A stretch of DNA of 64,000 nucleotides from Candidatus Multivoradales bacterium (GCA_965248925.1 CBDFLE010000006.1:2048001-2112000); one strand, 5' to 3'. Positions 38,879-43,217 are shown, numbered from the stretch's first letter. A program made the numbers and translations. The notes: generated from the letters alone by a model not told the origin.

Positions 38879-38941
38879 GCTTCGCTGGGATTGCGACCGG
38901 ACGACAGTGCCAGGCATCTTTGTCCTGAAGCGAGGCAGACC

Positions 38942-39193
38942 ATGGTCACCGTGAATGTCAACGAGCTAGAAACCCGGCTTTCCAGTTTGCTGGCTGCCAT
39001 TGAAGGAAAAGACGAGACGATCGTGATCTGTCGAGCCGGGCGGCCGATCGCCGAGTTGCGGCCGCTATCGAAAATTTGTGATCCGCTCCGAGTCCATCCC
39101 GAGCTGTCGCAAATCGAGTTCTATGAAGATCCGATGGCGCCGCTAGAGCCAGAAGACTGTCCGAACTCAGATCCCTCTGGCATCATCGACTGA
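38942..39193 (+). CDS. Phd/YefM family antitoxin (no adjacent toxin)
   Basis: MVTVNVNELETRLSSLL...IVICRAGRPIAELRP. Confidence 0.78.
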   Translation: MVTVNVNELETRLSSLLAAIEGKDETIVICRAGRPIAELRPLSKICDPLRVHPELSQIEFYEDPMAPLEPEDCPNSDPSGIID

Positions 39194-41053
39194 CCGCAAC
39201 AACGGCGCCAACTGCGGATCGGCTGCTACCGCCGAGCGCAGCTCAGGGTTCGCGGCCAGTGCCTCATTCACACTTTGGCGGGCTGCCTTGGTGTCACCGG
39301 CTTGCTGCTGGTAGCGAGCCAGGGTGAGACGGAGGCGAGCGTCGTTCGGCTCAAGGTCGACCGCTTGACGTAGGGCGCCGGCGGCGTCGGCTGGGCGCTT
39401 GCTGGCGGCCAGCGAGGCGGCCAGATTGACCCAGGCTTCGATGCGGCGAGGCTGGAGTTGGGCGAGTTCTAACCAGTGAGGCAGAGCGTCGCCGGGGCGA
39501 CCGAGACGCTGCAACGCGTCGGCCAGGGCGAATCGGGCCTCGGCGCGGCTCGGATCCAAAAGAACGGCTTTCTGCAAGCGTGGCGCGGCGGCCTCAAGGT
39601 TGCCGGCCTTGAGCAAGGCGATGCCACTGCGCAACATAGCAAAGTGATTTTCGGGCTCTTGGGCCAACACCTGGTCGAATGCGGCTACGGCTTCGGCAAA
39701 CCGGCCCCTCCCCATCAAGGCTTCGGCAGCCAGCAAGACACGCCGTTCGGCGATCCGGTCTTTGGGGTCGGGCAGGTTTGGCGGCGGCTCGGGATCAGCA
39801 CCCCCGGAACCGACGTAGCCCAGGGCGCGCAGACGCGACAAGGTTTCGGCATCGGCCGACTTGGCGCTTCCGACCGCGGCTGCCGCTTCGATGTGGCGCA
39901 ATGTACTGAGCAGAACATGGGTCTGGCGGCGCTGATCGTCGATCCGGTTGTGCTGTTCGCCCGCGTCTTGGCGCAAGTTGTAGAGCTCGGGGCGCGGGGC
40001 GACGATCATCTTCCAACCGTCGTGCCGGAGGGCCTTTAAGGGCGCCCAACCGAAGTAGACCCACGGCAACCGGGTCTCAAGATAGGCCGGCGCGGGAGGC
40101 AGCGCCTGGCCATTCAGCAGCGGCACAATGCTGCGACCGTCCAGATTCGCCATCTCGGCCTGGCCGAGGAGTTCGAGCACTGTCGGGACGATGTCGATCA
40201 GGCGCACCGCTTGGGCACTGGCGCCGGGCCGTACTTTGCCCAGTTGGTGAAAAATCATCGGCACTAGCATCGTGCTGTCGTAGAGGAAGTAGCCGTGAGT
40301 GTCCTCTTGGTGCTCGCCCAGGGCCTCGGCGTGGTCGGCGGTCAGCACGGTCAGAACAGGGCCCGCCGCGATCTCGCCAATGCCGCGCCGTAGCTCGCCG
40401 ATGGCGTGGTCGACATAGGCAACTTCGCCGTCATAGCTACCCCGTGGACCGGGTTGCCAAAAAGACCTCGGGGGCAGGTAAGGATCGTGAGGATCGTAAA
40501 AATGTAGCCACAGAAACCACGGCGGCTCGGCTTTGGCCAACCACTCCAATGCCGCCTCGACGGTGCCGCCAGCGCGCCTCTCGACCCAACCTTCGACCCC
40601 CTCGGGCATGGTGTCGTCGTAGTGCTCGAAGCCACGGTCGAGTCCGAAGGCGCGCTGCAACGGGAAACCGCTGACAAAGGCGCCCGTGCTGTAGCCCCGC
40701 GCGCGCAAATGCTCGGACAACAACGGCACACCCGCGGCCAGCAAGCGACCGTTATCGCGTACTCCGTGGCGCCGAGGCAATAAGCCAGAGAGGATCGAGG
40801 CATGGGCCGGCAGGGTCAGCGGCACCGGCGACACCGCGCCGGGTAGACGAAAACCAGCGGCTGCCAGGCGGTCTATCTCCGGCGTATCGCCGCGACCCGA
40901 AACCCAACCCAAAGCATCGGGACGAAGAGTATCGACAGTGATCAATAGCAGGTTCGCGGGAGCAGCAGGCAGGTCAGCTGAACCGGCTACCGCGCCCGGC
41001 CCACCGAGGGCTACGGAAAGTAGCCAGCAAACTGCGGTCGAGCGAATGCTCAC
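39167..41053 (-). CDS. Exported sulfatase-like hydrolase with C-terminal TPR repeats
   Basis: NLLLITVDTLRPD, PLTLPAHASILSG, WLHFYDPHDPY, YDGEVAYVD, TADHAE, EDTHG, LRALGYV, then TPRs. Confidence 0.9.
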   Translation of the reverse strand: MSIRSTAVCWLLSVALGGPGAVAGSADLPAAPANLLLITVDTLRPDALGWVSGRGDTPEIDRLAAAGFRLPGAVSPVPLTLPAHASILSGLLPRRHGVRDNGRLLAAGVPLLSEHLRARGYSTGAFVSGFPLQRAFGLDRGFEHYDDTMPEGVEGWVERRAGGTVEAALEWLAKAEPPWFLWLHFYDPHDPYLPPRSFWQPGPRGSYDGEVAYVDHAIGELRRGIGEIAAGPVLTVLTADHAEALGEHQEDTHGYFLYDSTMLVPMIFHQLGKVRPGASAQAVRLIDIVPTVLELLGQAEMANLDGRSIVPLLNGQALPPAPAYLETRLPWVYFGWAPLKALRHDGWKMIVAPRPELYNLRQDAGEQHNRIDDQRRQTHVLLSTLRHIEAAAAVGSAKSADAETLSRLRALGYVGSGGADPEPPPNLPDPKDRIAERRVLLAAEALMGRGRFAEAVAAFDQVLAQEPENHFAMLRSGIALLKAGNLEAAAPRLQKAVLLDPSRAEARFALADALQRLGRPGDALPHWLELAQLQPRRIEAWVNLAASLAASKRPADAAGALRQAVDLEPNDARLRLTLARYQQQAGDTKAARQSVNEALAANPELRSAVAADPQLAPLLRSVDDARGI

Positions 41054-41499
41054 CGAGCCTCTGCGGGCTCTGAGGATTGTGCCTCACCAGCAGCCTCGAC
41101 CTTCTGGGTCTGCACGCCCGAGAAGCGCACTTTCAAACCGGTGTTGGTAACGTAGTCGAGGTAGTAATAATAAGTCTCGCCGGCTTTGACTTCGCAGTCG
41201 ACAAAGAGGTAGCGGCCGACATCTTTTTCGTCGACTCCCTCGGCGCGGACGATAGCGGCATTGCGGCGCACGAAAGGCCCCTGGCGGGTGGCGGCACGGT
41301 AGACCAAATAGCCGTAAACACCGGCCTCGGTCTTGGCCTGCCAAGCCAGCCTGGCAGATGGCTGGCAAGCGGTCACCAGCGGTTCCGCGAGCGAAGCTTG
41401 TGCGGCCAACAACCAGGGGGCCAGTACCAGCCCAACGGCCAGCAAGAAACCCCGGCAGGTGGCCTTCGTCATCAGCAGTCTGGTTCTAATCTTGGCCAT
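41050..41499 (-). CDS. Small exported FN3/Ig-like protein apparently lacking the PVEL..F first strand
   Basis: Signal peptide then LAWQAKTE..YGYLVYRA...GPF.R.N..I...G......YLFVD..V..G.TYYYYL; overlaps both neighbours. Confidence 0.75.
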   Translation of the reverse strand: MAKIRTRLLMTKATCRGFLLAVGLVLAPWLLAAQASLAEPLVTACQPSARLAWQAKTEAGVYGYLVYRAATRQGPFVRRNAAIVRAEGVDEKDVGRYLFVDCEVKAGETYYYYLDYVTNTGLKVRFSGVQTQKVEAAGEAQSSEPAEAR

Positions 41500-42616
41500 C
41501 GCTGACAGCCTCCTTGATAGGGGCGGTGGCGTCAATCTGCCGTATCTCCACGCCAGCCGGCAAAACCCAACCACGATAGGCCACCGGCAGCGGCGACGAC
41601 TGCCCCTGCAGGCGGATCTCCAAAGATCCCACGACGGGTCCGGTAGCCGTCGGCTGGGCGCGTAAGAGCAGCCGACGACAGGCCCCTTCGGTGTCTGCAC
41701 ACGGCTCCTCGCCGAGCCATTCAAAGAGGCCGGCGGGGTCTTCGACGGCGACAATGTGAAAAGGCGTCTGGCTGCGACTGCGCAGTTCGAGCGACTCGGT
41801 GACGGTCTCAAAAACTCGGCCGCCGCTTAGCTTGAGCGGGTTGCGGTCCGGCCGCACGTCGCCAAAAACATTGGCCCAATACCGCAGCACCATCAACGGC
41901 TGGTTGACAACGTTGGTTTCGAGCAGCAAACGCCCTTCTTGCAAACCGAGCGCACCGCCCGCAGCCAGGGAGATTTCGAGCCTACGGCCCTCGCCGGGCA
42001 GGCCCACCGCACCGATATCGCGCAGCGCCGCGCCCGCCGGTGCGTCTCGAACGCCGAGTAGGGAAAGCTGTGGCACTTCGCGGCTAGCTAGCTCGACCAC
42101 CGCCCGACCACCCGTCGCCGGATCGACCCAGCCGAAACCTATCGACAAGGTCTCAGGATCATAGGCCGATTGGACGAAGCCGCTGAGGCTGAGTTTGTAA
42201 TGAGCGCTGCCAGGGCCAACGTCGAAGCCGTCGCGTTCGTCGGTGTAGACGCCCACCCGCATCCCGGTTCTGCCGAGGTGCTCGACCAAAGGCTGGTGAA
42301 CGGTCAGCTCGGCTCGGGCTCCAGGGGCCAGGTCGACTGGCAGGCCTCCTACCCAACCTTCCGGCGAACGCGGCAAGACCGAGACAATACGCACCGGATG
42401 GTCAGACGGGTTCTCGACCCGGAAAACATGCACCACCGTTTGGTGCTGATAGCGTTCGCCGAACTCGGCGTGCGGGGTCGCGAAAACGAGTGCGAGCGGC
42501 GCCTCTCCGGCACCGCTCGCGGTTGCGCAGGCGATGGTCAGAACCATCGCGGCGATCGTTTTCACCCAGCTCGCCAAGCCGACCCCGCCGCCTGAAACGG
42601 CCAGATCGATCCGCAT
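41486..42616 (-). CDS. Exported DUF1573-like multi-Ig (PapD/ASH-like) protein
   Basis: Signal peptide, AEFGE....VVHVFRVEN....PVRI.......LAPG..AELTV, followed by two further beta-rich repeats. Confidence 0.6.
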   Translation of the reverse strand: MRIDLAVSGGGVGLASWVKTIAAMVLTIACATASGAGEAPLALVFATPHAEFGERYQHQTVVHVFRVENPSDHPVRIVSVLPRSPEGWVGGLPVDLAPGARAELTVHQPLVEHLGRTGMRVGVYTDERDGFDVGPGSAHYKLSLSGFVQSAYDPETLSIGFGWVDPATGGRAVVELASREVPQLSLLGVRDAPAGAALRDIGAVGLPGEGRRLEISLAAGGALGLQEGRLLLETNVVNQPLMVLRYWANVFGDVRPDRNPLKLSGGRVFETVTESLELRSRSQTPFHIVAVEDPAGLFEWLGEEPCADTEGACRRLLLRAQPTATGPVVGSLEIRLQGQSSPLPVAYRGWVLPAGVEIRQIDATAPIKEAVSDGQD

Positions 42617-42629
42617 CCGGTGACTCCGA

Positions 42630-43217
42630 TCAGTCGATCTCGAAGCTCAACAGCTCGACCGGCAAGGTGCCGGTGATGTCGAGGGTGAAGCCGCCGCAAG
42701 AAGCTGCGCCCGCGGCGTAGTACGAGTCGATGTAGATGAAGTAGCTGGCCGGGGTCAGCGGTGCCGGAATCATGTCCGCGCCGGCCGGGTTGGTCTGTGA
42801 GATGTCGGAAGGCACACCACCGCCGATCGCGTCATTGAACGCGATGCAGCTAGTGCCCAGCCCACAGGTGCCGACGAGGAAGATCCCTAGGTCCGCCGCG
42901 GCGGGGGTCAAGGTCATGGTGATCGCAGAGTTGCCGGCACCGACAAGAATCTCGTAGACCAACTCAGGTCCTGGGTACAGCAGGCTGTTGCAAGTGGCGC
43001 TAGCGTAGTCGCTGATCGCCGCCACGCCCGCGCAAGTGTCCAGGGTGGCATCGGTGAAGGGCAGCGCCGAGATTGTAGCCACGGTCGCGCAGGGGCCGGA
43101 GCTATCACCGGGAGGGGCCGGGGCGCCGATGCGCTCGCGCTGAGTTTGCGCGCTGACCGCGCTGCCTACCAGGAGCACCGCCATCACGATGCAGACGAAA
43201 ATGCGAGATCTGTTCAA
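42630..43217 (-). CDS. Secreted Cys-rich PPC-like beta-sandwich protein with C-terminal LPVELLSFEID tail
   Basis: TTG start with GGAGGAG RBS, signal peptide ending VSA, GPELVY, DLGIFL, YFIYIDSY, FTLDI, tail TLPVELLSFEID*. Confidence 0.8.
   Translation of the reverse strand: MNRSRIFVCIVMAVLLVGSAVSAQTQRERIGAPAPPGDSSGPCATVATISALPFTDATLDTCAGVAAISDYASATCNSLLYPGPELVYEILVGAGNSAITMTLTPAAADLGIFLVGTCGLGTSCIAFNDAIGGGVPSDISQTNPAGADMIPAPLTPASYFIYIDSYYAAGAASCGGFTLDITGTLPVELLSFEID

Follow-up and report, generated by a model that had tools for sequence, protein, structure and literature searches.

A C-terminal PVEL tail and a separately encoded FN3-like domain without strand A: a possible split-domain docking system in a Candidatus Multivoradales bacterium

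In chaperone–usher (Pap/Fim) pili and in the type V pili of Bacteroidia, an immunoglobulin (Ig)-type sandwich lacks one edge strand, which is supplied by another chain. Here, a related arrangement is proposed for four coupled genes, designated A to D, that lie in a 64,000-nt stretch of the genome of a Candidatus Multivoradales bacterium (GCA_965248925.1, CBDFLE010000006.1:2048001-2112000; this whole stretch is called the window). The secreted protein A ends in a short tail that appears to correspond to the first strand (strand A) of a fibronectin type III (FN3)-like domain, and the small secreted protein C is the same kind of domain lacking that strand. The comparison with donor-strand pili also takes in the Pam pili of the candidate phyla radiation (CPR) (PMC13278184). 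In pili of the chaperone–usher type, every subunit combines an incomplete Ig fold with a donor strand and can thereby polymerise, and the gene cluster includes an outer-membrane usher. The likeness lies in an incomplete sandwich that would be completed by a peptide of another chain, in the clustering of the genes, and in a PapD-class Ig protein encoded alongside. In contrast to those pili, the strand missing here is the first one in an FN3-like domain, and it would be donated by a C-terminal tail; moreover, donor and acceptor are located on separate proteins, which points to a heterodimer or docking and not to a filament.

A second comparison is offered by the secretion system of type IX (T9SS), with its cargo architecture and PorU sortase (PMC4804311, PMC4560394, PMC8545088). 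The two systems are alike in that a complete PVEL-type FN3-like domain stands in cis before a Por_Secre_tail domain in a relative of C (P0063), and in that a PorU-related C25 peptidase co-occurs with the tails; however, the signal considered here is an 11-residue strand, whereas the T9SS signal is a β-sandwich C-terminal domain of roughly 75 residues, and the PorU-like protein scores below the PorU family cut-off. Among cellulosome components, the dockerin is a folded calcium-binding module. Cohesin–dockerin pairs resemble the present case in that one short module, found on many unrelated secreted proteins, plugs into a scaffold or anchor receptor, but there is no sequence or fold relation between the two, and the dockerin does not complete the fold of its receptor. 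SpyTag/SpyCatcher, other engineered split domains and laboratory strand swapping of FN3 (PDB 4m6a) share with the locus the principle of a peptide tag giving a strand to an incomplete sandwich, and laboratory fragment complementation of FN3 was reportedly achieved by Dutta et al. in 2005; these systems are engineered, and SpyCatcher is isopeptide-locked, whereas the split proposed here is natural and shows no sign of a covalent lock. In the literature covered, with supplements and subscription journals outside its scope, no natural C-terminal FN3 strand-A tag was found that is shared by unrelated secreted proteins and has separate receptors and a non-T9SS PorU-like companion, and no PorU relatives were found described in Acidobacteriota. 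Donor-strand complementation is a known principle; what is new here is a syntenic candidate receptor, a complex model that passes, and the link to a C25 peptidase.

The features under study are given below in window coordinates.
Gene A, 42630-43217, minus strand: 195 aa; TTG start behind GGGAGGAG; C-terminus GTLPVELLSFEID directly before the stop
Gene B, 41486-42616, minus strand: 376 aa; secreted; DUF1573/HYDIN-VesB-like Ig domains
Gene C, 41050-41499, minus strand: 149 aa; secreted lone FN3-like domain without strand A; proposed acceptor
Gene D, 39167-41053, minus strand: 628 aa; GTG start; secreted sulfatase-like (alkaline-phosphatase superfamily) enzyme with a C-terminal array of tetratricopeptide repeats (TPR)
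Tail of A, TLPVELLSFEID, 42633-42668, minus strand: A residues 184-195; donor strand as proposed here, corresponding to FN3-like strand A
FN3-like core of C, strands B to G, 41101-41355, minus strand: mature residues 14-98; strands as in the AlphaFold2 (AF2) model
T-L-P-A-H in D, 40802-40816, minus strand: residue 80 onward; position of the sulfatase C/S-x-P-x-R nucleophile motif

The quartet was delineated from the listing of open reading frames (ORFs) and the sequence. As stated in a preliminary description of the window, its four minus-strand genes are tightly coupled: A and B are 13 nt apart, whereas B shares 14 nt with C, and C shares 4 nt (GTGA) with D. B lies in a different frame from A and has its own ribosome-binding site, GGAG. 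The Sec-like signal peptides that the same description assigned to all four products were recognized at the N-termini of A, B, C and D, by eye only.

The identity of the tail motif rests on complete domains related to C. An exhaustive phmmer search returned 1683 relatives of C, and their reading is based on the best 150 of these matches. Among the matches listed, three relatives with complete domains (P0063, P0081 and P0144) carry the motif in cis. P0063, related to C at an E-value of 8.5e-17, contains four repeats in which [IL]P[VT]ELSSF[TS]A is followed, after 9 residues, by LQWTTE.ET..GF.V.RS; it terminates in a Por_Secre_tail and is therefore a T9SS cargo protein. Two giant ORFs of the source genome likewise have LPVTL[SA]SF and then the same FN3-like domain. 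Many tandem FN3 proteins of the GY.VYR type are also found among the phmmer matches of C, and the ordinary tandem FN3 proteins in this list show P.GL.A at the position of the motif. Judging from sequence, the tail motif is strand A of complete homologous domains; the premise of the preliminary description that LPVEL.SF forms the first strand of an FN3/Ig-like domain in cis is upheld by the P0063 repeats and the giant ORFs.

C itself matches no Pfam or NCBIfam family, and no Pfam fn3 match was obtained at E-values up to 1. When C and 56 relatives that stand alone were aligned (57 members), conservation was seen to start at L.W, and the region between the signal peptide and this point is a short, variable stretch rich in Ala, Pro and Ser. 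AF2 modeling of mature C yielded a confident sandwich (predicted local distance difference test, pLDDT, 89.4) with strands at residues 14-20, 26-34, 60-66, 74-83, 88-90 and 95-98, residues 1-13 being coil with a pLDDT of about 61. An FN3 domain is a sandwich of seven strands, A-B-E against C-C'-F-G. The nearest solved folds are FN3 domains (template modeling score up to 0.65, probability 1.0, with a weak E-value of 5e-3). A profile built from the four complete P0063 repeats was searched against 73,905 ORFs of at least 60 aa from the source genome, and its two best matches were C (E-value 9e-8, positions 11-91) and the C paralogue C2 (E-value 5e-6, positions 20-88), both of which begin beyond the ten strand-A positions. 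C is the same FN3-like domain from strand B onward, without strand A, and the alignment, the AF2 model and the start of the profile match at position 11 agree with the earlier view of C as a small domain devoid of its first strand. A caveat that the segment EPLVTACQP of C might supply this strand did not hold, as the segment is unconserved, forms a low-confidence coil and lies outside the predicted interface; the N-terminal segment of C as its own strand A was rejected on the alignment, the C model and the complex model.

Protein A consists of a signal peptide, a PPC-like β-jelly-roll body with six conserved cysteines, and the C-terminal tail LPVELLSFEID, which is directly followed by the stop codon. 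It matches no Pfam or NCBIfam family and none of the curated NCBIfam sorting-domain models. PPC (PF04151) is matched by the A homologue P0016 (27.7 bits; cut-off 25.9) and is not matched by A itself, and the AF2 model of A (pLDDT 71) bears a weak likeness to collagenase PPC and collagen-binding domains, with fold matches including 1nqj and 5sv5 (E-value about 4e-3, probability 1.0). In this monomer model, the last strand spans residues 176-184, and tail residues 185-195 form a coil that is not packed on the body of A. A word-index search identified 22 relatives of A (131-214 aa), of which 21 were aligned, the 131-aa fragment P0011 being left out. The pattern [LI]PV.L..F.[IVA]x-stop ends 20 of the 21 aligned homologues, across an identity range of 39-91%; the homologue P0023 (locus L033) departs after LPVELL, and its locus lacks B, C and D. 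At the genomic level, the tail is kept in 22 of 23 A loci with the stop codon at the same place, and its variants include LPVSLESYSID and PAELVEFEIH. The tail ends one residue past F.[IV], i.e., in the A-B turn. The last residue is variable (D, E, N, K, S, H, G or R), and an isopeptide lock via the terminal Asp is unsupported because of this variation.

For complex prediction, mature A and mature C were each supplied with their own alignment, unpaired. The A–C complex scored 0.67, and the best of three controls 0.01; of 80 solved complexes, 58 attained the score mark, as did 2 of 110 mismatched pairs, counts that are rough where our own alignments are used. The A–C runs share at least 55% of contacts, with a partner pLDDT of at least 79. 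The predicted interface comprises residues 184-195 of A (plus 93-95) and residues 14-26, 77-83 and 89-97 of C, and the tightest residue pairs (188-20, 190-19, 192-18 and 194-16) run antiparallel along strand B of C. The modeled position of the tail on this strand is the site of strand A in FN3 domains. Thus, the strand insertion expected in the preliminary description was reproduced in the model, with the tail beside strand B of C and clean controls, and the complex model supports tail–C binding, short of demonstrating it.

Gene order provides a further line of evidence. The 23 A loci belong to Rhodanobacteraceae, Thermoanaerobaculia, Holophagae, Vicinamibacteria and one bin labelled Deltaproteobacteria, and the order A-B-C is found at 18 of them, in Acidobacteriota and Rhodanobacteraceae, i.e., in two phyla; the proposed synteny of the PVEL-tailed gene with the acceptor and DUF1573-like genes is therefore widely kept. 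Among the other loci, three are cut by a contig end after B and two have A alone, one of these with the broken tail. D is present at 19 of the 23 loci, after C in 4 and divergently upstream of A in 15. Cultured carriers are Tahibacter aquaticus (DSM 21667, locus L035) and T. caeni. Further modules occur in genomes G025, G036 and G050, with tails ending in E or N; a stricter DNA pattern for the tail overlooked such endings, and a looser one was used for the 41-genome count given below. Inspection by eye of 18 tail–C pairs for co-variation detected only differences that follow phylogeny. At the G025 locus (L036, 7119-8596), two tandem copies of A, both ending in PVELIEFTIE-stop, are situated upstream of one B–C fusion, and a C25–C2 pair follows 1 kb further on, so that both parts of the system are contiguous there.

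The tail is not confined to A. In the source genome (8.0 Mb), 33,213 stop-to-stop ORFs reach a length of 100 aa, and 6 of them end in PVEL..F.[IV][DE]-stop; with further cases in related genomes this answers the search for PVEL-tailed C-termini suggested in the preliminary description. All six proteins (A and five others) have N-terminal signal peptides and differing bodies: A and one other are PPC-like, two contain a P-domain (PF01483) and two have no family. The five others match no NCBIfam sorting-domain model (PEP-CTERM and similar), and no Pfam or NCBIfam model covers the tail. In sorting tags of the PEP-CTERM kind, a transmembrane helix and a basic tail come after the motif. The tail proteins stop one residue past the motif, with no transmembrane helix after it. 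Four of the five other tail genes (loci L006, L007 and L010) are located inside repeated FG-GAP/ASPIC-UnbV (CRTAC1-like) clusters, which also hold TPR proteins, peptidyl-prolyl isomerases and a second sulfatase-TPR paralogue. Separately, a 65-aa remnant ORF ending in IPVELQSFRVD-stop is found at G000:C6:1001087-1001284 on the minus strand (G000 being the source genome); its front half is like a neighbouring STAS-like small ORF, and it has the appearance of a fragment left behind by recombination from the tail gene, which lies at a distance of 1.4 kb.

A candidate receptor for these other tails is C2, encoded outside the window at G000:C6:1014942-1015421 (locus L008, 5942-6421). C2 starts with a lipoprotein-type signal, continues with about 35 residues of low-complexity linker and then enters the domain at N.V.W.TASE, without strand A; ten relatives share this build, most of them with a Cys directly after the hydrophobic stretch. 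To relate tails to receptors, 41 related genomes were scanned with the looser tail pattern, which gave 133 matches in 29 genomes, the reversed control giving 5 matches; here, as in the ORF count of the source genome, the tail exceeds what chance would give. A strong C/C2 match (E-value ≤1e-20) was detected in 28 of the 41 genomes, all 28 being tail-positive, and in none of the 12 tail-negative genomes; the sole tail-positive genome without such a match is 81% complete. The co-occurrence of PVEL tails with acceptor genes that had been anticipated is thus observed in this set. Families f2, f4 and f7 of the order are each split, with one genome having tails, C/C2 and the peptidase and one having none of them, and the pattern is therefore not that of a single inheritance event. 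Across 151 genomes sampled from the phylum, the source genome and G032 alone had tails (D/E-ending pattern) and the peptidase, and C (E-value ≤1e-25) occurred in three genomes, namely these two and G050, all with an adjacent tailed A; G050 has A-B-C-D, with a tail ending in N.

The reading we favor, at a probability of roughly 0.6, is the trans completion of a split FN3-like domain, in which the tail of A docks on C and the other tails, by extension, on C2. In this view, the quartet makes up an envelope module that is conserved and has a naturally split domain at its centre. Sec-exported A would present its free C-terminal tail as strand A of an FN3-like sandwich, and C, which is translationally coupled to B here or fused to it elsewhere, would contribute the domain from strand B onward. 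The tail would run antiparallel to the exposed strand B of C and pack against strands F and G, a seven-stranded domain would be rebuilt, and A would be tied non-covalently to a B–C stalk, the expected outcome being docking in a 1:1 ratio instead of polymerisation. At least five further secreted proteins of the source genome bear this tail and would dock likewise, with the lipoprotein C2 as the likely receptor. The docking geometry is that of the model; we infer its purpose, either cargo anchoring or presentation, as well as the role of B as a stalk and that of D. All computational tests run support the core of the preliminary description, namely that the PVEL peptide may dock as a strand, in trans, on a separately encoded acceptor.

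Several points weigh against this reading. Modeled by itself, C reaches high confidence although strand A is missing, and the domain may not need completing. There are six tails but only two strand-A-less receptors in the source genome. Unrelated proteins, in place of a scrambled or deleted tail, served as controls of the complex prediction, and the predictor may simply complete a very familiar fold; strand-swapped FN3 structures exist in the PDB, and one of them, 4m6a, is among the fold matches of C. The E-value line of 1e-20 for C/C2 was drawn after seeing a gap from 7.6e-21 to 6.3e-15, and genomes so related do not count as independent samples. None of the tests made accounts for the roles of B and D. 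Finally, the perfect co-occurrence of tails with the peptidase fits a processing signal as well as it fits a docking tag.

This peptidase is encoded at G000:C6:1003947-1006589 (locus L007, 11947-14589), outside the window, and carries an LAGC lipobox. Its best NCBIfam match, to the T9SS sortase PorU (NF033707; E-value 1.5e-66), reaches 224.8 bits, below the 420-bit cut-off, and on this comparison it is related to PorU and not an equivalog. The tail might mainly be a sorting or processing signal for this enzyme, leading to its cleavage or to transfer of the cargo to an envelope acceptor, in the manner of PorU and T9SS cargo, with docking on the strand-A-less domain as the step that recruits substrates or irrelevant; we consider this, the main rival reading, unlikely. 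Among the 41 related genomes, those with a PorU-like orthologue are precisely the 29 tail-bearing ones; all three Rhodanobacteraceae genomes with the A–D module have such an orthologue as well, and the C2 and C25 genes lie at most 500 bp apart in 18 of the 29 peptidase-bearing genomes. In the source genome, the peptidase gene has C2 at a distance of 8.5 kb and lies directly upstream of a tail gene of the P-domain kind, and every complete PV.L-type FN3 domain belongs to a giant protein equipped with a C25 domain as well. However, C provides the A–D module with an acceptor, and at none of the 23 loci does a C25 gene adjoin the module; at the three Rhodanobacteraceae C25 loci, the 4 to 5 kb around the C25 gene contain neither C2 nor a tail gene. 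In G050 (94% complete), the module is present and no C25 match at an E-value ≤1e-40 was found among the 6 of 8 candidates scored, and the operon may therefore work without the peptidase. The processing reading is, in addition, compatible with docking.

The giant FN3–C25 proteins are the fused counterpart of the split system. In two such ORFs outside the window, one of 3104 aa with its end at G000:C5:1744562 and one of 1510 aa with its end at G000:C6:4215031, a complete LPVTL[SA]SF-type FN3-like domain is combined with a C-terminal C25 domain. Trans completion and peptidase action may also be parts of one whole: the tails, the C/C2 receptors and the PorU-like C25 peptidase could constitute an undescribed, T9SS-independent envelope sorting pathway in which fold completion recruits and the sortase-type peptidase anchors or processes, the A–D operon being a specialised branch equipped with a separate receptor stalk and with an ester hydrolase or transferase that bears TPRs. 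We offer this extension tentatively, as possible rather than probable. As regards T9SS itself, Por_Secre_tail (PF18962) had no match in the source genome (96.9% complete), in a search whose positive control also remained without a match; of the SprA/PorV models, TIGR04189 matched neither the genome nor the control, and NF033710 had no match in the genome, with the control matching Bacteroides thetaiotaomicron. Within A to D, no Por_Secre_tail or CHU_C domain was found.

The two remaining products of the operon, B and D, were analyzed for their family relations. B matches DUF1573 in Pfam with an E-value of 0.002 and 18.4 bits, below the cut-off of 26.1; it is nevertheless likely to be a distant member of this family, because its neighbours in a protein atlas all belong to DUF1573/HYDIN-VesB Ig clusters (at 0.95). 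In the source genome, B lacks paralogues. Among the 150 relatives of C listed, 33 are 447-508 aa long and match in their last hundred residues, as in B–C fusions, and all three sequences read (P0029, P0034 and P0052) consist of a B-like protein, a Pro/Ala/Glu-rich linker and the C domain; B and C are fused likewise at most Rhodanobacteraceae loci. Since such fusions are common, B is more likely to be the stalk of C than a separate chaperone. The DUF1573 likeness noted in the preliminary description is thus retained in weak form, whereas the free chaperone it suggested is disfavored by the fusions.

D matches Sulfatase (PF00884) with an E-value of 6e-30 as well as TPR families, and PDB sulfatases and TPR proteins match it by sequence. 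S1 formylglycine sulfatases have a C/S-x-P-x-R motif, the Cys or Ser of which becomes formylglycine. At this position, T-L-P-[AS]-H is found in all 22 listed D orthologues of at least 58% identity, D itself having T-L-P-A-H, and because of this nucleophile motif D cannot, as far as sequence tells, be a formylglycine sulfatase. It is treated here as a putative phospho- or sulfo-ester enzyme with a TPR platform, and its sulfatase-TPR family has probably been misnamed by fold-based annotation; of the earlier designation as a TPR sulfatase, the sulfatase fold and the repeats stand and the formylglycine chemistry does not.

TPR clamps bind C-terminal EEVD or PTS1 (peroxisomal targeting signal 1) peptides, and the TPR array of D, or the TPR proteins near the other tail genes, might bind the free tail and bring cargo to the enzyme domain. 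This explanation is improbable. It would fit the presence of D at 19 of 23 loci, of TPR proteins within three genes of four of the five other tail genes, and of 2 of about 4 full-length sulfatase-TPR paralogues near tail genes; but TPR and FG-GAP/ASPIC genes are very numerous in the source genome, and the loss by C of exactly the strand that resembles the tail would be left unexplained.

More improbable still is the view that the tail is left over from a truncated FN3 domain or represents an artefact of assembly or frameshift, having no function in trans or packing on A. The broken tail of P0023, at a locus without B, C and D, and the 65-aa remnant ORF would suit such an origin, but the tail is kept down to 39% identity, in two phyla and with the stop in place, it occurs on unrelated families (PPC-like, P-domain and others), and it is unpacked on A in the model. 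Truncation or frameshift was rejected as its source, given the conserved position of the stop and the location of B in another frame behind its own GGAG. Pilus-like polymerisation by serial donor-strand exchange, which the preliminary description had raised, is the least credible: a general donor-strand likeness and the PapD-like Ig fold class of B speak for it, but it is unsupported because no protein carries both tail and acceptor, C and the B–C fusions terminate in low-complexity sequence that is not conserved, none of the six tail proteins contains a strand-A-less FN3 domain, and no usher-like gene is present at the loci read (none among the Pfam matches of 40 neighbouring proteins or in the window flanks; no genome-wide search was made).

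If trans completion of the FN3-like domain holds, A and C would represent a natural peptide-tag/catcher pair, and the tail a general docking signal in at least two phyla, carried by unannotated families. It would provide an annotation rule for hypothetical secreted proteins ending in PV.L..[FY].[IV]x-stop, pointing to a receptor and possibly to a PorU-type sortase outside type IX secretion, and would tie the origin of the T9SS cargo architecture to an ancestor or descendant with a split domain. Protein engineering could also gain a small tag that is genetically encodable and binds non-covalently. The presence of the module in the cultured, non-pathogenic Tahibacter aquaticus strain makes the system directly testable.

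The genes flanking the quartet in the window encode an acyl-CoA ligase, a Phd/YefM-like ORF product, an S51-like peptidase and an esterase; they are unrelated to A–D, which therefore stand as one operon. The Phd/YefM-like ORF (100 aa, 38891-39193, plus strand) matches the antitoxin family below threshold (24.5 versus 29.8 bits) and is convergent with D, overlapping its 3′ end by 27 nt.

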